Shown in pieces: positions 15,623-24,000 of a stretch of DNA of 24,000 nucleotides (position 1 is the first letter of the stretch; each line of letters opens with the position of its first letter). Source of the DNA: Oscillospiraceae bacterium (GTDB lineage Bacteria; Bacillota; Clostridia; Oscillospirales; Ruminococcaceae); assembly GCA_045655125.1 (NCBI GenBank), contig JAZOOR010000050.1, positions 282 to 24,281 on the forward strand, written 5' to 3'. A program made the translations under genes and the position numbers. Under the pieces are notes generated by a model. The model was given only the letters and a program-made list of their open reading frames with translations, made no database searches and was not told the DNA's origin.

Positions 15623-15892
15623 TATTTCAAATGCGATGATGGAATTATTTCTTATTAGGTCTTTCATCAAAGAGAGCCGCCGATGGTGTGAATGCGGTAT
15701 GAAAGTGATAGGGAAGTCTCGTTCCGGAGCAGAGCGGCTGAAATTTTTAAGTAAGCGGCTTCGGCTTGCCCCGTTACCTTGGCAGAAGGCTTGATAGAGC
15801 CTTACAAAGTGGCTGTGTTTTCGCAGCAATCAGGGTGGTACCGCGAAATATTTCGTCCCTGAGACCGAAATTGTCGGTCTCAGGGTTTTTTT
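15623..15892 (+). promoter_or_regulatory. T-box riboswitch leader 3, specifier probably CUC (Leu) at 15718-15720 (alternative GUC, Val, 15716-15718)
   Basis: Elements seen are K-turn GCGATGA-GGAA (15633-15644) paired with TTCC-GGAGC (15722-15730), helix CTTTCAT/ATGAAAG, AG bulge AGAGAG (15671-15676), distal loop GGTGTGAA (15686-15693), T-box sequence AGGGTGGTACCGCG (15832-15845) and a terminator at 15857-15892. Confidence 0.85.
15857..15892 (+). terminator. Intrinsic terminator of T-box leader 3
   Basis: An 11-bp perfect stem pairs CCCTGAGACCG with CGGTCTCAGGG, with a 7-nt loop, followed by 7 T (15886-15892). Confidence 0.88.
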
Positions 15893-15928
15893 ATTGCCCG
15901 AGACGGCATAATGAAAGGAAAGAAAGCA

Positions 15929-17308
15929 ATGAAACAAATCAAAATCGCAGACACAACGCTTTGCAGAAAAGAGGGCGCATTTTCTTTTAAAGAGAAAATC
16001 GAAATTGCAAGACAGTTAGAGCGCCTTTGCGTTGACACTATTGAGCTTCCCGAAATTGAAAACGCAAAAACCGACATCTTGCTTGTAAAAACTATATCCT
16101 CTTTTGTTAAAAAGAGCATCATCTCGGTTGCCGCAGGCAGCAGCCTTAAGAGTATTGAAAATGCCGCTGTAGCTCTCTGTAATGCCGCAAAGGCAAGAAT
16201 TCGCATTGAGCTTCCCATTTCACCCGTCGGAATGGAATATACCTGCCGCAAAAAAGCTCCCAAAATGCTCGAATACATAAAAGAGTGCGTAAAATGTGCG
16301 CGTGAAAAGTGCGATGACGTTGAGTTTTGCGCAGTTGATGCCACCCGCGCTGATAAAGGATACTTAAAAGAGGCTATGGACGCTGCTATCAGCGCAGGAG
16401 CTACCTCTGTTACTATTTGCGACAGCGCCGACGAAATGATGCCCGATGATTTTGCGGCATACATTAAAGAAAATGCTAAGGATATTGCCGTTCCCGTCGC
16501 AGTTTCCTGTGAGAATAAAAACGGGCTTGCGGTTGCAACCGCAATTCTCTCTGTAAGAGCGGGAGCAGACTGTGTTAAAACTTCTGTAAACGGCGAAGGT
16601 GTGCCTCTTGACACCTTTGCAACTATGATTCGCAACTGCGGAAACAACTATGGCTTTGAAACTAAAATCCGCAGCACCGAGCTTCACAGAATTGTAAAGC
16701 AGATAAACTGGATAGTTGGTGCTAACGAAAATGATAAGTCTGTTGTTACCGTTTCTTCAAACGACGAAATGGGAATTCACCTTGATGTTAACGATAGTAA
16801 AGATGATGTCTGCGCTGCAACACAAAAGCTTGGCTATGACCTTTCACAAGAGGACAAGGCAAGAGTTTACGAGGAATTTCTGCGCGTTGCAGATAAAAAG
16901 ACTGTCGGAGCAAAGGAGCTTGATGCAATTGTTGCAAGCGTTGCTTTGCAGGTGCCCGCAACCTATCAGCTTGTAAGCTATGTTATAAATAACGGAAACA
17001 TTATTTCCGCCACCGCACAGATAACCGTAAATAAAAACGGAGAGCATATGCAGGGCTTCTCACTCGGTGACGGACCTATCGATGCCGCATTTTTAGCCAT
17101 CGACCAGATAATCGGTCACCACTATGAGCTTGATGATTTCCAGATTCAGTCGGTAACCGAGGGCAAGGAGGCTATGGGCTCGGCTTTAGTTAAGCTTCGC
17201 GCAGGCGGAAAGCTCTATAGCGGAAACGGAATTTCAACCGATATTATAGGCGCATCTATTCGCGCATATCTTAATGCCGTTAACAAAATTGTTTATGAGG
17301 AGGCATAA
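15929..17308 (+). CDS. 2-isopropylmalate synthase-like protein (HMGL-like TIM barrel + LeuA-type C-terminal domain) with substituted catalytic motifs
   Basis: The layout is LeuA-like: IKIADTTL... at the N-terminus, and GDGPIDAAFLAI and GNGISTDIIGASIRAYLNAVNKI at the C-terminus. Canonical DTTLRDGEQ is DTTLCRKEG, HxHNDxG is SCENKNG and GERAGN is GEGVPL. I prefer the ATG at 15929 (MKQIKIADTTL, preceded by AAAGGAAAG) over 15911. Confidence 0.7.
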   Translation: MKQIKIADTTLCRKEGAFSFKEKIEIARQLERLCVDTIELPEIENAKTDILLVKTISSFVKKSIISVAAGSSLKSIENAAVALCNAAKARIRIELPISPVGMEYTCRKKAPKMLEYIKECVKCAREKCDDVEFCAVDATRADKGYLKEAMDAAISAGATSVTICDSADEMMPDDFAAYIKENAKDIAVPVAVSCENKNGLAVATAILSVRAGADCVKTSVNGEGVPLDTFATMIRNCGNNYGFETKIRSTELHRIVKQINWIVGANENDKSVVTVSSNDEMGIHLDVNDSKDDVCAATQKLGYDLSQEDKARVYEEFLRVADKKTVGAKELDAIVASVALQVPATYQLVSYVINNGNIISATAQITVNKNGEHMQGFSLGDGPIDAAFLAIDQIIGHHYELDDFQIQSVTEGKEAMGSALVKLRAGGKLYSGNGISTDIIGASIRAYLNAVNKIVYEEA

Positions 17309-17310
17309 AA

Positions 17311-19830
17311 ATGAAACTTTCCTTTTCAACAAAGGGATGGCATAACAACACCTTTTCCGAGTTTTGCGATATAGCAGTTGACTTGGGGTTTAAAGGAATA
17401 GAGCTTCATAATATTGGCGGCCGCCTGTTTACAGAGCGCGACGGCGCGTTTTATGACTATGCCGCCGCCGCAACAATGCGCCGCCTTTATGAAAAAGGTC
17501 TCACCATTCCCTGTATTGATACAATCTGCGATATTGCAGACGAGAGCCAAAGAGACACAGCAAAAGAGGAAATCGAAAAGTGCCTTTCTATTGCAGAAAA
17601 TCTGCATATTCAGAATATTCGTCTGCGCGCATTTGCAAAAGAGGATAGCGAGGGCGCGCTGAAAACAGTTTCAGCACTGCTTTCAGAAATGATGCCCAAA
17701 GCGGAGGAAAAGGGTGTTGCCTTAGCGCTCGAGACCTCCGGACTTTTTGCAAGCACCGAGATTCTCCGCGATATGCTCGACTCTTTTGCCTGCGATAATT
17801 TAGGCGCACTGTGGAACTTTTCTGCCGCCTATTTTGAGAGCGGCGAGGAGCCTGAGACTGTTATTAAAAACCTCGGCGCATATGTCCGCCACGTGCATTT
17901 TAATGATGCGCAGAAAACCAAAAACGGTATGGAATACTGCCTTGCGGGTGAGGGTGAGCTTCCCATAAAAGAGCTTATGCTCGCTCTGCGCTCTGTAAAT
18001 TATGACGGATTTATCTCTCTCGTCTGGGACCCTACATGGTGCTTAGAAATTGACGATATGGAGATTATCTTTTCACAGTTTACAAACTTTATGAAGCAGT
18101 TTAAGGCAGTTTCCCGAAACGAGAAACAACTATACTACAACCGCGCACATACAGGCAAATTTGTATGGGAAAAGGACAAGATAATTGACCTTACATTCTC
18201 GCAGGTTTTAGACAGAATGGTAGAGGAATTTCCCGACCAGTATGCCTTTAAATACACAACCCTTGACTATACGCGCACATACAGCGAGTTTCGCGATGAC
18301 GTTGACACCTTTGCCCGCGCCCTTATTTCAATGGGAGTAAAGGCAGGCAGCAAGGTTGCTGTATGGGCATCAAATGTGCCGCAGTGGTATATTGCGTTCT
18401 GGGCAACAGTAAAAATCGGCGCGGTCTTGGTTACTGTTAACACCGCCTATAAAATTCACGAGGCAGAGTATTTGCTACGTCAGTCCGACACACATACCCT
18501 TGTTTTAACCGAGGGTGCAAAGGACACTCACTATGGTAAAATAATTTCCGAGCTTTGCCCTGAGCTTGAATGTAAAGAGGCTTCAAAACCTCTTCACAGT
18601 AAGCGTCTTCCGTTCCTTAGGAATGTTATCACAGTAGGATTTAAGCAGAAAGGCTGTATGACTTGGAACGAGGCTATCGAGCGCGCCGCTCAGGTTTCGC
18701 CTGAAGAGGTCAGAAGAATGGCAGCCGCCGTTGATAAGGATGATGTCTGCAATATGCAGTACACCTCAGGCACAACAGGCTTCCCCAAGGGAGTTATGCT
18801 CACCCACTATAACGTTGTTAATAACGGAAAATATATCGGCGACCATATGGATTTGTCAACTGCAGACCGTATGATGATTCAGGTTCCTATGTTCCACTGC
18901 TTTGGAATGGTGCTTTCTATGACCGCTTCAATGACGCACGGAACTACAATGTATCCTCTGCCTTATTTTTCTCCCAAACCCGCGCTCGCTTGCGTTCACA
19001 ATGAGCATATTACCACCTTTAACGGTGTTCCTACTATGTTTATCGCTATGATGGAGCATCCCGACTTTGCCAAGACGGATTTTTCATATATCAGAACGGG
19101 AATTATGGCGGGCGCAAACTGCCCTGCCGACCTTATGAAAAAGGCAACGGAAGTTATGAATATGAAAGAGATAGTTTCTGTTTACGGACAGACCGAGGCA
19201 AGCCCCGGCTGCACTATGAGCAGTTACTATGACACACTCGAGGTTCGCACAGAGACTGTCGGCAGTGCCTTTGCAAATGTCGAGTGCAAAATCATCGACC
19301 CCGAAACGGGCGAGGACTGCCCCGACGGAGTTGACGGTGAGTTTGTTGCACGCGGCTACAATATTATGAAAGGCTATTACAAAATGCCTGCTGCAACCGC
19401 CGCCGCTATTGATAAGGATGGCTGGCTTCATACAGGTGACCTTGCCTGCCGCGCTCCTGACGGTACTTATCGCATTACAGGCAGACTTAAGGATATGATT
19501 ATCCGCGGCGGTGAGAACATTTATCCTAAGGAAATTGAGGAGTTTATTTACACCAATCCCAAGGTCAGCGATGTTCAGGTTATTGGAGTTCCCGACAAGC
19601 AGTATGGTGAAGAAATTATGGCATGTATCATACTTAAAGAGGGAGAGAGCATGACTGCTGACGAGATGAAAGCCTATATCGGAGCAAGTATGGCTCGTCA
19701 TAAGGTTCCGAGGTATATTGACTTTGTAGATAGCTTCCCGATGAATGCCGCGGGGAAAATCCTTAAATACAAAATGCGCGAGGATGCGGCTAAAAAACTC
19801 GGTCTTGATAAGGCGGGGAACAAAAAATGA
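17311..19830 (+). CDS. Fusion protein: N-terminal xylose-isomerase-like (AP endonuclease 2 family) TIM barrel + C-terminal AMP-forming acyl-CoA ligase (FadD/YngI-like)
   Basis: Residues 1 to about 265 have the pattern FKGIELHN...LALETSG...VRHVHFNDA...DGFISLVWDP, typical of sugar-phosphate isomerase/epimerase-like barrels. The rest carries MQYTSGTTGFPKGVMLTH, VYGQTE, GWLHTGDL, GRLKDMIIRGGENIYPKEIE and MNAAGKILK. GAGGAGG lies upstream, and there is a 2-nt gap from the previous gene. Confidence 0.8.
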   Translation: MKLSFSTKGWHNNTFSEFCDIAVDLGFKGIELHNIGGRLFTERDGAFYDYAAAATMRRLYEKGLTIPCIDTICDIADESQRDTAKEEIEKCLSIAENLHIQNIRLRAFAKEDSEGALKTVSALLSEMMPKAEEKGVALALETSGLFASTEILRDMLDSFACDNLGALWNFSAAYFESGEEPETVIKNLGAYVRHVHFNDAQKTKNGMEYCLAGEGELPIKELMLALRSVNYDGFISLVWDPTWCLEIDDMEIIFSQFTNFMKQFKAVSRNEKQLYYNRAHTGKFVWEKDKIIDLTFSQVLDRMVEEFPDQYAFKYTTLDYTRTYSEFRDDVDTFARALISMGVKAGSKVAVWASNVPQWYIAFWATVKIGAVLVTVNTAYKIHEAEYLLRQSDTHTLVLTEGAKDTHYGKIISELCPELECKEASKPLHSKRLPFLRNVITVGFKQKGCMTWNEAIERAAQVSPEEVRRMAAAVDKDDVCNMQYTSGTTGFPKGVMLTHYNVVNNGKYIGDHMDLSTADRMMIQVPMFHCFGMVLSMTASMTHGTTMYPLPYFSPKPALACVHNEHITTFNGVPTMFIAMMEHPDFAKTDFSYIRTGIMAGANCPADLMKKATEVMNMKEIVSVYGQTEASPGCTMSSYYDTLEVRTETVGSAFANVECKIIDPETGEDCPDGVDGEFVARGYNIMKGYYKMPAATAAAIDKDGWLHTGDLACRAPDGTYRITGRLKDMIIRGGENIYPKEIEEFIYTNPKVSDVQVIGVPDKQYGEEIMACIILKEGESMTADEMKAYIGASMARHKVPRYIDFVDSFPMNAAGKILKYKMREDAAKKLGLDKAGNKK

Positions 19831-20642
19831 TAGCAAACTACAAGGTTATTGACGCGCATTGTCACGTCTACCCCGAAAAAATTGCCGCAGCAGCAGTAAA
19901 TGCAACAGATAAATTTTATGATACTGTTTCAGCATTTGACGGCAGCACTGACGCTCTGCTTTCACAGTGTCAGCGCGAGGGAGTTGACCACGCGATTATT
20001 CAGTCTGTCGCAACAACCCCGAAGCAAGTTTCAAGCATAAACCAATTTATTGCAAAAACCGTAGAGGATAGCGGCGGAAAATTTACAGGTCTCGGAACAC
20101 TTCATCCCGACAGCTCAGATATCGCTGCTGACGTGCGTGAAATAATTGAGTTAGGACTCCACGGAGTCAAGCTTCACCCAGATATTCAAAGGTTTAAGAT
20201 AGACGATTACCGCTGCCTTAAAATCTATGAGCTGTGCGAAAGAGAGGGCCTTCCCATTTTAATGCACACGGGTGATAACAGATATGATTTTTCAAATCCC
20301 AACCGTCTGCTGCCTATTTTAGACATCTACACCGAGCTTGTTGTAGTTGGCGCGCATCTGGGCGGCTGGTCTATATGGGAAGAGGCGGGAGAGGTTTACC
20401 CGAGCCATAAAAACTTTTATGTTGACACCTCATCAACGCTGCACTTTTGTGGCATAGAAATTATGAAAAGAACTATAGAAAAATACGGGGCGGATAAGGT
20501 AATGTTTGCAACCGACTATCCTATGGGAGAGCAAAAGCGGGAGATTGATGCCCTGCTTTCTATGAATTTTTCAGACGAGGATTACAAAAAAATCTTCTCT
20601 GAAAACGCAAAAAAGGTCTTTAAAATTAAAGCAAATATTTAA
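19827..20642 (+). CDS. Amidohydrolase-2 family (TIM-barrel metal-dependent hydrolase/decarboxylase-like) protein
   Basis: VIDAHCHVYP (HxH), GVKLHPD, LMHTGD and FATDYPM (Asp on the last strand) match the metal-ligand pattern of this family. The ATGA start overlaps the upstream stop by 4 nt. Confidence 0.7.
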   Translation: MIANYKVIDAHCHVYPEKIAAAAVNATDKFYDTVSAFDGSTDALLSQCQREGVDHAIIQSVATTPKQVSSINQFIAKTVEDSGGKFTGLGTLHPDSSDIAADVREIIELGLHGVKLHPDIQRFKIDDYRCLKIYELCEREGLPILMHTGDNRYDFSNPNRLLPILDIYTELVVVGAHLGGWSIWEEAGEVYPSHKNFYVDTSSTLHFCGIEIMKRTIEKYGADKVMFATDYPMGEQKREIDALLSMNFSDEDYKKIFSENAKKVFKIKANI

Positions 20643-20646
20643 AATT

Positions 20647-20680
20647 ACCTTTGCGGCGGCACAAAAGCCGCCGCAAAGGT
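20647..20680. terminator. Long perfect hairpin after the amidohydrolase gene (probable terminator, no clean T tract)
   Basis: A 14-bp perfect stem pairs ACCTTTGCGGCGGC with GCCGCCGCAAAGGT around the loop ACAAAA. The downstream sequence is ATAAAAAC, so the U-tract is missing. Confidence 0.6.
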
Positions 20681-20700
20681 ATAAAAACTTGCATTTTCTA

Positions 20701-20729
20701 TTGACTTTTGAAAAAAAAGGGAGTAAAAT
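20701..20729 (+). promoter_or_regulatory. Sigma-A type promoter P4: -35 TTGACT 20701-20706, 17-nt spacer, -10 TAAAAT 20724-20729
   Basis: Both hexamers are near-consensus with 17-nt spacing, in an A/T-rich context about 40 nt upstream of the leader ORF. Confidence 0.65.
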
Positions 20730-20767
20730 TTTTTTATTAAGTTTATTAAAAGAAAGGAGTGGCAGAA

Positions 20768-20836
20768 ATGTTCTTTTTTGGATATCGATATTATTTTACT
20801 AAGGGCTGCCCGCTTTCTTTTAAGTGTGAAAAGTAA
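20768..20836 (+). CDS. Candidate regulatory leader peptide, 22 aa: MFFFGYRYYFTKGCPLSFKCEK
   Basis: GGAG (20757-20760) lies 7 nt upstream of the ATG. Seven of codons 2-10 are Phe (TTC TTT TTT ... TTT) or Tyr (TAT x3). An intrinsic terminator follows, then aromatic amino acid genes. The ORF is too short for the track. Confidence 0.6.
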   Translation: MFFFGYRYYFTKGCPLSFKCEK

Positions 20837-20863
20837 TTTTTCCGCTAAAATTAAGAGGACAGT

Positions 20864-20913
20864 CCGCAGCCGTTTATGCCGCTTTGCGCGCCATAGGTGG
20901 ATGCGGTTTTTTT
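20864..20913 (+). terminator. Intrinsic terminator (attenuator) between the leader ORF and the aminotransferase gene
   Basis: An extended imperfect hairpin spans 20864-20906. The outer arms are CCGCAGCCGTT / GGTGGATGCGG, and the inner stem is TATGCCGC / GCGCCATA with one C-C mismatch. It is followed by 7 T (20907-20913), 27 nt before the ATG at 20941. Confidence 0.75.
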
Positions 20914-20940
20914 ATTGATTTTTTAAAGGAGACAGTAAAA

Positions 20941-22125
20941 ATGATAAACTCTAATATGCTCGCACTCGGCAAAAAAAGCTCGGTCATCAGAGAAATTTTT
21001 GAGTATTCCAAAAAGAGAAAGCTTGAAATCGGCGATGAAAATGTTTTTGATTTCAGCCTTGGAAACCCAAGTATTCCTGCTCCCGAGATTGTAACAGAAA
21101 CAATGAAGCGCCAAATGGCTGAAAAAGACCCCGTTGCTCTGCACGGCTACACCTCCGCACCAGGTGACTTAAAGGTCAGAAAAACTATTGCTAATAATAT
21201 AAACGAGCGTTTTGGCTTTGAGGCTCAGACTAATCTTATTTATATGACCTGTGGAGCTGCCGCTTCTCTCACCATAACCCTTAAAGCTATCATTGAGGAA
21301 GGTGACGAGGTTATCCTTTTGGCTCCCTTTTTCCCCGAGTATCAGGTTTTTGCCGCAAACGCGGGAGCAAAAACAAGGGTAGTTAAAGGCGTGGGCGAGC
21401 AGTTTGAGATAGACGAAAAGGCACTCTCAGAGGCAGTAAACAAACACACACGCGCCATAATCGTAAACTCCCCTAATAATCCCACAGGCGCGGTACTTAG
21501 CGAAGATAGCATTAAAACCTTAGCTCGTATACTCAGTGAAAAGCAAGAGGAGTATGGCAGAGCCATTACCATTATTGCAGACGAGCCTTACCGCGAGCTT
21601 GTATATAACGGTGCAGTTGTACCTTATATCCCCAATTACTACGATAACACAGTAGTATGCTATTCCTATAGTAAATCTCTTTCGCTCCCCGGTGAGAGAA
21701 TTGGCTACATATCTGTTTCTCCTAAGATTGAGAATGCGGGGGATGTCTTTGCAGCAGTTTGCGGAGCGGGCAGAAGTATGGGATACGTATGCGCCCCGAG
21801 TCTCCTGCAGTACACCGCCGCCGCTTGCGACGGTGCCGCCCCCGACATTTCGGCATATGACAAAAACAGAACTCTTTTATACAACTCTCTTTGTGAAATG
21901 GGATATAGCGCTACTCGTCCCGACGGTGCATTTTATCTCTTTGTAAAGTCACTTGAGCCTGATGCAAATGCATTTTGCGAGAGAGCCAAGAAATATGAGC
22001 TACTGCTTGTCCCGAGCGACGATTTCGGTGTAGAGGGATATGTAAGAATAGCCTACTGCGTAGGCTATGAGCAGATTGAGCGCTCACTTCCCGCCTTTAA
22101 AAAGCTTTATGAGGAATATAAATAA
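20941..22125 (+). CDS. Class I/II PLP-dependent aminotransferase (aspartate/aromatic aminotransferase family)
   Basis: Motifs seen are FSLGNP, NSPNNPTG and SYSKSLSLPGERIGY (PLP lysine). I prefer the ATG at 20941, with AGGAG at 20928-20932. The track start at 20884 (TTG) lies inside the terminator hairpin. Confidence 0.85.
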   Translation: MINSNMLALGKKSSVIREIFEYSKKRKLEIGDENVFDFSLGNPSIPAPEIVTETMKRQMAEKDPVALHGYTSAPGDLKVRKTIANNINERFGFEAQTNLIYMTCGAAASLTITLKAIIEEGDEVILLAPFFPEYQVFAANAGAKTRVVKGVGEQFEIDEKALSEAVNKHTRAIIVNSPNNPTGAVLSEDSIKTLARILSEKQEEYGRAITIIADEPYRELVYNGAVVPYIPNYYDNTVVCYSYSKSLSLPGERIGYISVSPKIENAGDVFAAVCGAGRSMGYVCAPSLLQYTAAACDGAAPDISAYDKNRTLLYNSLCEMGYSATRPDGAFYLFVKSLEPDANAFCERAKKYELLLVPSDDFGVEGYVRIAYCVGYEQIERSLPAFKKLYEEYK

Positions 22126-22136
22126 GGAGTAAAATA

Positions 22137-23225
22137 ATGGCTGACTTAAAAGAGGCAAGGCAGATTATAAATGAAACTGACAAGGCTATGGCAGAGCTTT
22201 TTAAAAAGAGAATGGATGCCGCACGTTTTGTCGCCGAATATAAGAGGCTGCACGGTCTGCCTGTTGAGGATTTAGCGCGCGAGGAGGAAATTGTTGCTCG
22301 CAATTCGCAGTACATAGAGGACGAGGATTACCGCTCATATTATGTAAATTTTCTTCGCAACAATATCGAGCTTTCAAAACAGTTTCAGCACCGCCTTTTA
22401 GACGGAATGAGGGTTGCCTACAGCGGAGTGGAGGGTGCTTTTGCAAATATCGTTGCTGAGCGCATTTTCCCCGATGCCAAGGCAGTTGCCCATAGTGATT
22501 TTAAGGTAGCGTATGATGCTGTTGTTTCGGGCGAGTGTGACTGCGCGCTTTTGCCTATTGAAAACAGCTTTAACGGCGATGTCAGCAAGGTTTTAGACTT
22601 AGCATTCTTCGGCCCTTTGTATGTAAACGGAATTTATGAGGCTGAAATAGTTCAGAACCTTCTGGCAGTTAAGGGCACTACTCTTGACGAGATAAAAACC
22701 GTCATCAGTCACCCTCAGGCGCTCGGACAGTGCGCCTCATATATAGAAAAGCACGGCTTTGAAACGCAGGAGGCTGTAAACACTGCGGTTGCCGCAAAGC
22801 AGGTTGCCGAAATGGCAAGACACGACATAGCCGCCATAGGCTCAAGCGAGGCGGCAGAAAAATTCGGTCTTAAAGAGCTTGCCTCTCACATAAATGAAAG
22901 CAGCACCAACACTACACGCTTTGCCGTTTTTTCAAGGGCGCAGAAAAAGGAAAGCCCTAATGATGCGCGTTTTATAATGCTTTTTACCGTTAAAAATGCC
23001 GCAGGCTCACTGGGCCGCGCCATTTCGGTTATCGGAGAGCATGGCTTTAACCTTTTGGCACTAAAAAGCCGTCCCACAAAAGAGCTTGTATGGGATTACT
23101 ATTTCTATGTCGAGGGCGAGGGCAATATAAACAGCCCCGAGGGCAGAGAAATGCTAAAGGACCTTAAAGGCTGCTGCAGTAACCTGAAAGTTGTTGGCAG
23201 CTTTGAGAAAGAGGTCCGAATTTAA
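22137..23225 (+). CDS. pheA: Bifunctional chorismate mutase / prephenate dehydratase (P-protein) with C-terminal ACT domain
   Basis: The N-terminal CM_2-like helices are LKEARQIINETDKAMAELFKKRMDAARFVAEYK. The PDT core is RVAYSGVEGAFANI...LLPIENSFNGDV...HPQALGQC...NTTRFAVFS. The ACT region is FTVKNAAGSLGRAISVIGEHGFNLLALKSRP. Confidence 0.9.
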   Translation: MADLKEARQIINETDKAMAELFKKRMDAARFVAEYKRLHGLPVEDLAREEEIVARNSQYIEDEDYRSYYVNFLRNNIELSKQFQHRLLDGMRVAYSGVEGAFANIVAERIFPDAKAVAHSDFKVAYDAVVSGECDCALLPIENSFNGDVSKVLDLAFFGPLYVNGIYEAEIVQNLLAVKGTTLDEIKTVISHPQALGQCASYIEKHGFETQEAVNTAVAAKQVAEMARHDIAAIGSSEAAEKFGLKELASHINESSTNTTRFAVFSRAQKKESPNDARFIMLFTVKNAAGSLGRAISVIGEHGFNLLALKSRPTKELVWDYYFYVEGEGNINSPEGREMLKDLKGCCSNLKVVGSFEKEVRI

Positions 23226-23243: not shown

Positions 23244-24000
23244 ATGGTAATTCCCGTTAAAACTACTCAGGGGTCATATGATATTATTTTAGAGCGAGGC
23301 GCACTTTTAAAGGCAGGAGAATACTTGAATCTAAACAGACGCACCCTTATCGTAACCGATAGCGGTGTTCCAGAGGAGTACGCAAAAACAGTTGCCGCCG
23401 CCTCAAAGTTCCCGAGTATTGTTACTATAAAAGAGGGAGAAGCCTCAAAGCAGATGGATACACTTAGGATTCTGCTCGAGACTCTTGTGAATGGCTCCTT
23501 TACCCGCACCGACTGTGTTGTGGCGGTCGGTGGCGGAGTGGTGGGTGACCTTGCAGGGTTTGCCGCCAGCATTTTTATGCGAGGAATTGATTTTTATAAT
23601 ATACCCACAACAGTTCTTTCTCAGGTGGACTCTTCAATAGGCGGCAAAACCGCCATTGACTTTATGGGAATTAAAAATATAGTCGGTGCCTTTTATCCGC
23701 CAAAAAGGGTAATAATTGATGCCGACACACTCGAAACGCTCCCGCCCCGCCAGATTTCCAATGGACTTTCTGAGGCATTAAAAATGGCGGTGACAAGTGA
23801 TAGTGAGCTTTTTGAGATTTTTGAAAAAAAGGATGCAATAGAAAATATAGATACAATTATTGAACGCTCACTCAGAATAAAAAAACAGGTTGTAGAAGAA
23901 GACGAGAGGGAAACAGGACTTCGCAAGATTTTAAATTTCGGTCACACCCTTGCACATGCGATAGAGAGCGCCAATGAGATGCAGGGGCTTTATCACGGAG
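23244..24000 (+). CDS. aroB: 3-dehydroquinate synthase, 3' end outside window (absent from the ORF track because no stop is reached)
   Basis: Hand translation from the ATG at 23244 is open to the window end: MVIPVKTTQGSYDIILERG...LIVTDSGVPEEY...VAVGGGVVGDLAGFAASIFMRGIDFYNIPTTVLSQVDSSIGGKTAID...NFGHTLAHAIE. These are the classic AroB motifs. Confidence 0.88.
   Translation, partial: MVIPVKTTQGSYDIILERGALLKAGEYLNLNRRTLIVTDSGVPEEYAKTVAAASKFPSIVTIKEGEASKQMDTLRILLETLVNGSFTRTDCVVAVGGGVVGDLAGFAASIFMRGIDFYNIPTTVLSQVDSSIGGKTAIDFMGIKNIVGAFYPPKRVIIDADTLETLPPRQISNGLSEALKMAVTSDSELFEIFEKKDAIENIDTIIERSLRIKKQVVEEDERETGLRKILNFGHTLAHAIESANEMQGLYHG

Follow-up and report, generated by a model that had tools for sequence, protein, structure and literature searches.

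A predicted phenylalanine/tyrosine leader-peptide attenuator upstream of the aminotransferase-pheA-aroB operon in gut Oscillospiraceae and Acutalibacteraceae

We identified a conserved leader upstream of an aminotransferase-pheA-aroB operon in a 24,000-nt stretch of an Oscillospiraceae bacterium genome (contig JAZOOR010000050.1; this whole stretch is referred to as the window, and all coordinates are window positions). Comparison with related genomes predicts, with good confidence, that this leader attenuates transcription of the three downstream genes by a ribosome-mediated, leader-peptide mechanism, with charged tRNA-Phe and tRNA-Tyr as the signals sensed. Several features typical of this class of attenuator were found, namely an open reading frame (ORF) with a Shine-Dalgarno (SD) sequence and a start codon, clustered cognate codons for phenylalanine (Phe) and tyrosine (Tyr), a terminator before the first gene, and an anti-antiterminator helix, designated R1:R2. 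A previous sequence-only reading of the window had proposed a ribosome-mediated attenuator and had called its alternative-structure step unproven. The proposal is now supported by the conservation of ORF, SD, start codon, and aromatic run in 33 leaders, by a terminator in each of these leaders, and by helix covariation, while the alternative-structure step is backed by partner-swap and covariation evidence for both a predicted antiterminator (R2:R3) and the anti-antiterminator. The R1:R2 helix, in which the SD of the leader itself is sequestered, was absent from the sequence-only reading. The leader and the genes downstream of it comprise the following features:

20701..20729, + strand: sigma-70-type promoter with -35 TTGACT (20701-20706), a 17-nt spacer, and -10 TAAAAT (20724-20729); 10/12 consensus positions
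20747..20775, + strand: R1, 5' strand of the anti-antiterminator and partner of R2; holds the leader SD, the start codon (20768-20770), and the next two codons (minimum-free-energy folds, partner-swap covariation)
20768..20836, + strand: leader ORF, 22 codons plus TAA, MFFFGYRYYFTKGCPLSFKCEK (ORF list and translation; homologous ORFs at 32 orthologous loci)
20771..20797, + strand: regulatory codon block TTC TTT TTT GGA TAT CGA TAT TAT TTT (F F F G Y R Y Y F), within the R1-R2 loop
20801..20822, + strand: R2, inside the ORF directly past the aromatic codons (folds, partner-swap, fixed-register test)
20823..20846, + strand: P2, hairpin separating R2 from R3; its loop holds the leader stop codon TAA (20834-20836) (folding)
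20853..20865, + strand: R3, 3' strand of the antiterminator, containing GGACAGUCC; the terminator 5' arm has its base in the final 2 nt of R3
20864..20913, + strand: intrinsic terminator, an imperfect hairpin (20864-20906; -20.7 kcal/mol) followed by a U7 tract (20907-20913); R4 is the terminator 3' arm plus the U tract
20941..22125, + strand: aminotransferase, class I/II, pyridoxal-phosphate-dependent (NF005305; domain/family match), first gene under the leader
22137..23225, + strand: pheA, with chorismate mutase, prephenate dehydratase, and ACT domains
23244..24000, + strand: aroB (3-dehydroquinate synthase; TIGR01357, 282 bits over the 252 available residues), cut by the window end

Conservation of the leader ORF and its operon

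The elements that the sequence-only reading had listed are present in the window, namely the promoter-like TTGACT-17-TAAAAT, a good ribosome binding site (SD AAAGGAG, 20753-20759, 8 nt 5' of the ATG at 20768), a 22-codon ORF with four Phe and three Tyr codons among codons 2-10, and an imperfect hairpin with a 7-T tract that ends 27 nt 5' of the aminotransferase ATG at 20941. Taken within the window alone, these signals are weak; the z-scores of the terminator hairpin (-1.4) and of the whole-leader fold (-1.9) are not exceptional, and promoter and terminator scans of the window score no better than shuffles. The case for the leader therefore depends on comparison across genomes.

We compared 80 orthologous aminotransferase loci from species-level genomes, nearly all of which are metagenome-assembled genomes labelled Acutalibacteraceae, Oscillospiraceae, Ruminococcus, or Clostridia. 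A homologous short ORF was found 151-222 nt 5' of the aminotransferase in 32 of the 80 loci; these 32 leader-positive loci and the window make up the 33 leaders to which the counts given here refer. Each of the 33 contains a start codon (ATG, GTG, or TTG) preceded, at a distance of 6-12 nt, by a purine-rich SD, as well as a terminator hairpin (-14 to -31 kcal/mol) with a U tract, and 32 of them present a TTGACA-17-TAAAAT promoter close to consensus (9 or more of the 12 positions) whose -10 element ends 29-38 nt before the leader start. The leader ORF is 20-27 codons long, and frame 0 alone is open across the 33 leaders (23 stops in frame +1 and 55 in frame +2).

The 33 leader peptides contain 129 Phe, 114 Tyr, and no tryptophan among 767 residues (Phe plus Tyr, 31.7%), a codon mix of roughly 1:1. 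The final four codons of the aromatic block specify Phe or Tyr in 28-33 of the 33 leaders, and the changes between species in these core four codons are TTT/TTC, TAT/TAC, and Phe/Tyr swaps, as would be expected from selection on codon identity rather than on the peptide or the RNA sequence. Comparison of the leader across genomes, a check suggested along with the sequence-only reading, found conserved aromatic codons as well as covarying stems. A CGA codon for arginine (Arg; window 20786-20788) is located directly before the core F-Y-Y-F run in 14/33 leaders; its slow decoding could aid stalling, or it could be kept for RNA reasons. A conserved N-terminus, Met-Phe-(Gly), encoded by AUGUUCGG, was also observed in the window (20768-20775) and in most leaders. 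In the folds, GUUCG at the leader start pairs with CGGAC of R2 (GUUCUU with AAGGGC in the window), suggesting that RNA pairing, and not a function of the peptide, underlies part of the seeming peptide conservation, including that of T-D-C-L-C past the aromatic run.

The three-gene arrangement aminotransferase-pheA-aroB follows the leader in 32/32 leader-positive loci, while 37 of the 48 leader-negative loci are without a downstream pheA and have the aminotransferase in another context. When metagenomes were scanned once with a pattern taken from within the leader, 20 loci were obtained, comprising 14 true leaders, all of which precede aminotransferase-pheA(-aroB), and six chance matches within coding DNA. 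By these counts, the predicted leader element is tied to the aminotransferase-pheA-aroB operon. No sign of a wider regulon was obtained from this single metagenome scan, the pattern of which is narrow and biased, and a scan for aromatic-rich small ORFs on both strands of the window and of all 80 loci found no second leader copy. In loci L015, L017, L021, L024, and L026, the orthologous aminotransferase has neither a leader nor a downstream pheA and starts 8-12 nt past the stop codon of another ORF; these close relatives suggest that the attenuator travels with the aminotransferase-pheA-aroB arrangement and not with the aminotransferase itself.

The codon and operon data also bear on a translation-dependent attenuator that would respond to the overall speed of translation or to stress (i.e., any amino-acid starvation, or antibiotics), and not to Phe/Tyr in particular, like the erm, vmlR, and hflX-type leaders. 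An upstream ORF (uORF), a terminator, and alternative helices are also found in Firmicutes antibiotic-sensing leaders (PMC8632094, PMC11602163), and the rare-looking CGA codon before the aromatic run would fit such a sensor. However, the conserved peptide feature is a Phe/Tyr run with free interchange rather than a fixed arrest peptide, and the element occurs strictly together with an operon for aromatic amino acids; a general stress sensor is thus an unlikely explanation of this leader.

Palindromic DNA motifs were observed at the promoters of this operon in other loci. In 537 kb of related loci, 11 copies of a near-palindromic motif, TTTAAAYCGYTAAA, were counted, every one at an aminotransferase-pheA-aroB promoter; its carriers are L011, L018, L025, L029, L030, L031, L042, L051, L063, and L064, and it is absent from the window. 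The motif lies 76-262 nt before the aminotransferase start, 5' of the -35 element in leader-positive loci and just 3' of the -10 element in leader-negative loci, and looks like a candidate operator for a DNA-binding regulator of aminotransferase-pheA-aroB. A second palindrome, GTTAACNNTGTTAAC, is located between the promoter and the aminotransferase, 21-43 nt before its start, in the leader-negative aminotransferase-pheA-aroB loci L047, L056, and L077; this may be another putative operator, standing in for the attenuator.

Alternative RNA helices and the proposed switch

The leader can be divided into four segments (R1 to R4). Pairing of R3 with the 5' half of R2 (GGGCUGCCCGC, 20803-20813) can give the antiterminator, while the entire R2, including its CU-rich, anti-SD-like 3' half, pairs with R1. 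The 5' half of R2 is a conserved ACGGACUGYCUGU-type element and its CU-rich 3' half varies by lineage; R3 is a conserved ACGGACAGYCC-type element. The P2 hairpin encloses the leader stop codon in 32/33 leaders and places it in the terminal loop in 20/33, where approximately 14% would be expected, although the P2 sequence is variable and unrelated between lineages. The A/T-only hairpin at 20834-20853 noted in the sequence-only reading does exist, as one of two alternative folds of this conserved stop-codon hairpin.

A whole-leader MAFFT alignment of 23 full leaders analysed with RNAalifold recovered only seven bottom terminator pairs, because the variable parts of the leader misalign, and was replaced by anchored segments, per-sequence folding, and partner-swap tests, which compare, by duplex energy, how well a segment pairs with its own partner and with partners from other species. 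For R1:R2, the own partner gave -21.0 kcal/mol and swapped partners -16.4 kcal/mol (0/10000 permutations as good), and the own partner was better in 21/21 clade representatives. The terminator arms gave -23.3 kcal/mol with own and -16.0 kcal/mol with swapped partners (0/10000 permutations as good), and R2:R3 gave -16.2 and -14.5 kcal/mol, respectively (9/10000 permutations as good); the controls R1:R3 and R1:R4 were not significant. By this measure, R1:R2 and the terminator covary strongly and R2:R3 moderately.

The sequence-only reading had suggested, as the antiterminator, a pairing of GGCTGC (20804-20809) with GCAGCC (20866-20871). These segments are complementary and the pairing is feasible, but the register conserved in the family, which in the window pairs GGGCUG (20803-20808) with CAGUCC (20860-20865), is more favourable by 2.6 kcal/mol, and the suggested pairing is not the conserved one. 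With R2:R3 placed in a single fixed register, 74.7% of cells are paired, as compared to 24-41% when the partner is slid by 1-3 columns; both-side changes were found at 8/14 pairs, and the covariation score (0.211, versus 0.165 in shuffles) was reached by none of 500 shuffles. Compensatory changes include GGAC/GUCC to GAAC/GUUC in L060, GCGGACC/GGUCCGC in the L007 clade, and CUGCCU/AGGUAG in L037.

The same two segments could be read differently, as sites for an RNA-binding regulator that recognises a repeated GGAC(A/U)G-type motif and picks terminator or antiterminator, with the small ORF secondary or irrelevant. R2 and R3 each carry the motif, and many relatives have it beside the start codon as well; both elements are highly conserved in sequence and resemble direct as well as inverted repeats (ACGGACUGYC and ACGGACAGYC), and at position 7 the two copies change together (U/U or C/C), producing A.C mismatches in the helix. 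Against such protein-mediated attenuation, the register test favours a helix, and the compensatory double changes in the divergent L060, L007-clade, and L037 leaders keep R2:R3 paired. A regulator of this type would also leave unexplained the conserved SD, start codon, and open frame, the restriction of codon changes to Phe and Tyr, and the position of the stop codon inside P2, and no candidate regulator gene linked to the operon was found in the window. We therefore consider protein-mediated attenuation quite improbable, and ribosome-mediated attenuation remains the preferred reading.

The behaviour of the 33 leaders was examined by folding in the states that ribosome-mediated attenuation distinguishes, with the stalled-ribosome state represented by masking the 5' part to 12 nt beyond the stalled A site. 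Folding with and without the 5' segment masked had been proposed as a check with the sequence-only reading. As free RNA, the terminator was intact in 29/33 leaders and R1:R2 formed in 28/33; with a stalled ribosome and the terminator 3' arm still unmade, R2:R3 formed in 33/33, in each case occupying 2-6 nt of the terminator 5' arm; and with a ribosome footprint on the stop codon, the terminator formed in 27/33. For the window, the two pairs at the bottom of the terminator had probabilities of 0.61/0.77 in free RNA, 0.76/0.96 with the ribosome at the stop codon, and 0.13/0.22 with the ribosome stalled.

We propose that the switch would operate as follows. Transcription would start approximately 25-30 nt upstream of the 22-codon leader ORF. 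Without a ribosome, R1:R2 would close and leave R3 free, R3:R4 would form, and transcription would terminate, making the default state off. A ribosome that loads before R2 is synthesised and stalls at the Phe/Tyr codons in the R1-R2 loop would block R1:R2; R2 would then capture R3 as it emerges, the base of the terminator would be occupied, and RNA polymerase would read through. When Phe and Tyr are both plentiful, the ribosome would reach the stop codon in the R2-R3 loop and melt P2, so that R2:R3 would be blocked and the terminator would form. The mixed Phe/Tyr codons would thus provide multivalent control, which fits an operon that combines the common-pathway gene aroB, a presumed shared aminotransferase, and the Phe-branch gene pheA; the aminotransferase is presumed to act on aromatic amino acids.

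Several observations weigh against this interpretation. The antiterminator and the terminator overlap by just 2-6 nt across the family and by 2 nt in the window, and, when full-length RNA with a stalled ribosome was folded to equilibrium, the terminator base was lost in 13/33 leaders only, while the terminator won in 20/33; the switch must therefore be kinetic, as in many attenuators. The covariation of R2:R3 is much below that of the other helices and the weakest of the three, because both of its strands are conserved in sequence, and the helix contains internal mismatches at two positions (A.C in 13/28 distinct rows at one, unpaired in 21/28 at the other). The covariation tests also use related sequences, and their permutation counts are not true probabilities. 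In addition, R1 contains the leader SD, which means that the ribosome must load before R2 is transcribed and that either prompt coupling or a polymerase pause is required; runaway transcription has been described in B. subtilis, a model member of the same phylum (PMC13323073). A TTNTTT motif, which corresponds to a NusG-type pause motif (PMC11602163) and might serve as the pause that synchronises ribosome and polymerase, was seen by eye in the aromatic block of the window (TTCTTT and TTATTT); it is missing from the commonest family sequence, TTTTATTACTTT.

A more specific version of ribosome-mediated attenuation, which we put forward tentatively and as rather less than an even prospect, is that this is an independently evolved, Oscillospirales-specific family that works by ribosome position; with a ribosome in the R1-R2 loop (at the Phe/Tyr codons) or in the R2-R3 loop (at the stop codon), the helix enclosing it could not close, and transcription and translation would be tightly coupled or synchronised by a programmed pause at the leader. 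If this is true, only transcripts on which a ribosome has loaded within approximately 60 nt of synthesis could switch on, since R1 sequesters the SD, and the family would represent a natural probe of transcription-translation coupling in gut Clostridia. The mechanism needs a ribosome that keeps up with RNA polymerase, and may thus offer a concrete test of coupling or pause synchronisation in Clostridia.

Neighbouring T-box and upstream transcription unit

Upstream of the leader, the window contains a T-box-associated gene cluster and a hairpin that closes it:

15627..15863, + strand: T-box leader (RF00230, 123.9 bits, full length; Rfam scan)
15911..17308: leuA-like ORF (HMGL-like and LeuA_dimer domains), preceded by the T-box
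17311..19830, + strand: 839-amino-acid ORF, a xylose-isomerase-like TIM barrel (AP_endonuc_2) fused to an AMP-binding (acyl-CoA ligase-type) enzyme
19827..20642: amidohydrolase ORF, last ORF before the hairpin
20646..20681, strand-neutral (listed on the minus strand by the scan; the sequence is palindromic): G+C-rich palindromic hairpin with a 15-bp stem, closing the upstream operon

The specifier of the T-box, read by eye from ...GAAGUCUCG..., suggests CUC (leucine). The 839-amino-acid fusion ORF, which is located between the leuA-like gene and the Amidohydro_2 gene, presents an unusual pairing of domains and apparently belongs to the T-box-controlled operon. The predicted upstream transcription unit is set apart from the leader by the hairpin at 20646-20681.

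No T-box had been recognised at the aromatic leader in the sequence-only reading, and this holds; cmscan of positions 20600-21000 at E ≤ 10 matched no Rfam family, neither an amino-acid leader family nor RF00230, and Rfam 15 gave no match to the leader in 18 related leader-positive loci at gathering thresholds. A T-box or other curated RNA family at the leader was ruled out by these scans, and neither a T-box sequence nor a Stem I is present. With a T-box elsewhere in the window and none at the aminotransferase operon, this genome uses T-boxes, but not for aminotransferase-pheA-aroB. These results also bear on a riboswitch that binds a metabolite or tRNA, whether T-box-like or built on a new aptamer; the ORF would then be incidental to a U/A-rich sequence. 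Aromatic genes of Bacillota are usually under the control of T-boxes (PMC2494555), and the genome does contain one; on the other hand, the absence of Rfam matches, the ability of the ORF and three mutually exclusive helices to account for every conserved block, and a variable P2 that leaves no space for a conserved aptamer core make a riboswitch very unlikely. Chance, i.e., an ordinary 5' untranslated region whose terminator is weak and whose ORF has arisen fortuitously in T-rich DNA, would fit the unexceptional folds and shuffle-level scans of the window taken alone, but is effectively refuted by the presence of all parts at fixed positions, with covariation, in 33 species-level genomes and 14 metagenome contigs.

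Comparison with known leader systems

Leader-peptide attenuation of amino-acid operons is textbook biology of Proteobacteria. In Bacillota, where regulation is mostly by T-boxes and RNA-binding proteins, reports of it are sporadic (PMC2965389, PMC9413887); amino-acid leader peptides are thus rare in this phylum but have precedents. Histidine (His) leader-peptide attenuators have been predicted in Firmicutes, in the B. cereus group, Peptostreptococcaceae, and Erysipelotrichales (PMC2965389, PMC9413887). Like the leader predicted here, these were found by comparative analysis and replace the usual T-box or repressor control, whereas the amino acid, operons, and lineages differ and the sequences are unrelated; neither study (PMC2965389, PMC9413887) describes an aromatic leader of Oscillospiraceae or Acutalibacteraceae. 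We found no earlier description of this leader family in the literature, in a search of incomplete coverage. The attenuation mechanism itself is classical and not new; what the present analysis adds is a well-conserved, uncurated family with predicted dual Phe/Tyr specificity in the abundant, mostly uncultured gut Oscillospiraceae and Acutalibacteraceae, which supplies a regulatory annotation for their aromatic amino-acid operon and a candidate entry for RNA-family databases.

Other systems combine some of the same elements. The uORFC-13-1 motif described by the Breaker laboratory upstream of aroF in Acholeplasma, a Firmicutes-allied lineage, is a candidate Phe-sensing uORF beside an intrinsic terminator (PMC8632094) and thus resembles the present leader in having a Phe-type uORF and a terminator before an aromatic-pathway gene. 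By its description, it is set apart by its gene (aroF), by its taxon, and by at least one Phe that derives from a U run rather than from a conserved Phe/Tyr block. The leu/phe leader of Lactococcus, a curated Rfam family, is another Bacillota example, with a short ORF containing leucine or Phe codons upstream of amino-acid genes; the leader described here does not match its Rfam model and belongs to a different lineage and operon. T-boxes (RF00230) are likewise sensors of tRNA charging that control a terminator before amino-acid genes in Bacillota, but they read uncharged tRNA directly, without translation.

The ribosome-stalling logic proposed here follows the classical trp, phe, and his attenuators (PMC9413887, PMC1183508, PMC3082878). 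Close functional parallels are the enterobacterial pheA leader (pheL; Rfam Phe_leader) and the pheST leader, in which an ORF with Phe codons and a terminator with a competing antiterminator precede an operon for Phe biosynthesis or charging (PMC3082878), and the pheA leader controls the same chorismate mutase/prephenate dehydratase gene by ribosome stalling. There is no homology in sequence or structure to Phe_leader (no Rfam match at E ≤ 10), and the present leader differs from the enterobacterial pheA leader in several respects: Tyr and Phe codons are mixed approximately 1:1, the aminotransferase is first in an operon that also includes aroB, the SD of the leader itself is part of R1, the loop between R1 and R2 contains the regulatory codons, and the host belongs to the Clostridia and is not a gamma-proteobacterium.

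The proposed architecture resembles that of the E. coli trp attenuator, with which it would share four segments, the alternatives 1:2, 2:3, and 3:4, termination as the untranslated default, and a segment 2 that is freed by a stalled ribosome for antiterminator formation. In the E. coli trp leader, region 1 contains the regulatory codons, and antiterminator and terminator share the whole of region 3. In the leader predicted here, in contrast, the codons would be in a loop, 2-6 nt would be shared, and the stop codon would lie in a dedicated hairpin between segments 2 and 3. Mixed Phe/Tyr codons, their location in the R1-R2 loop, sequestration of the SD by R1:R2, a stop codon in its own hairpin, and the short overlap of antiterminator and terminator are thus the predicted features that distinguish this leader from the textbook cases.

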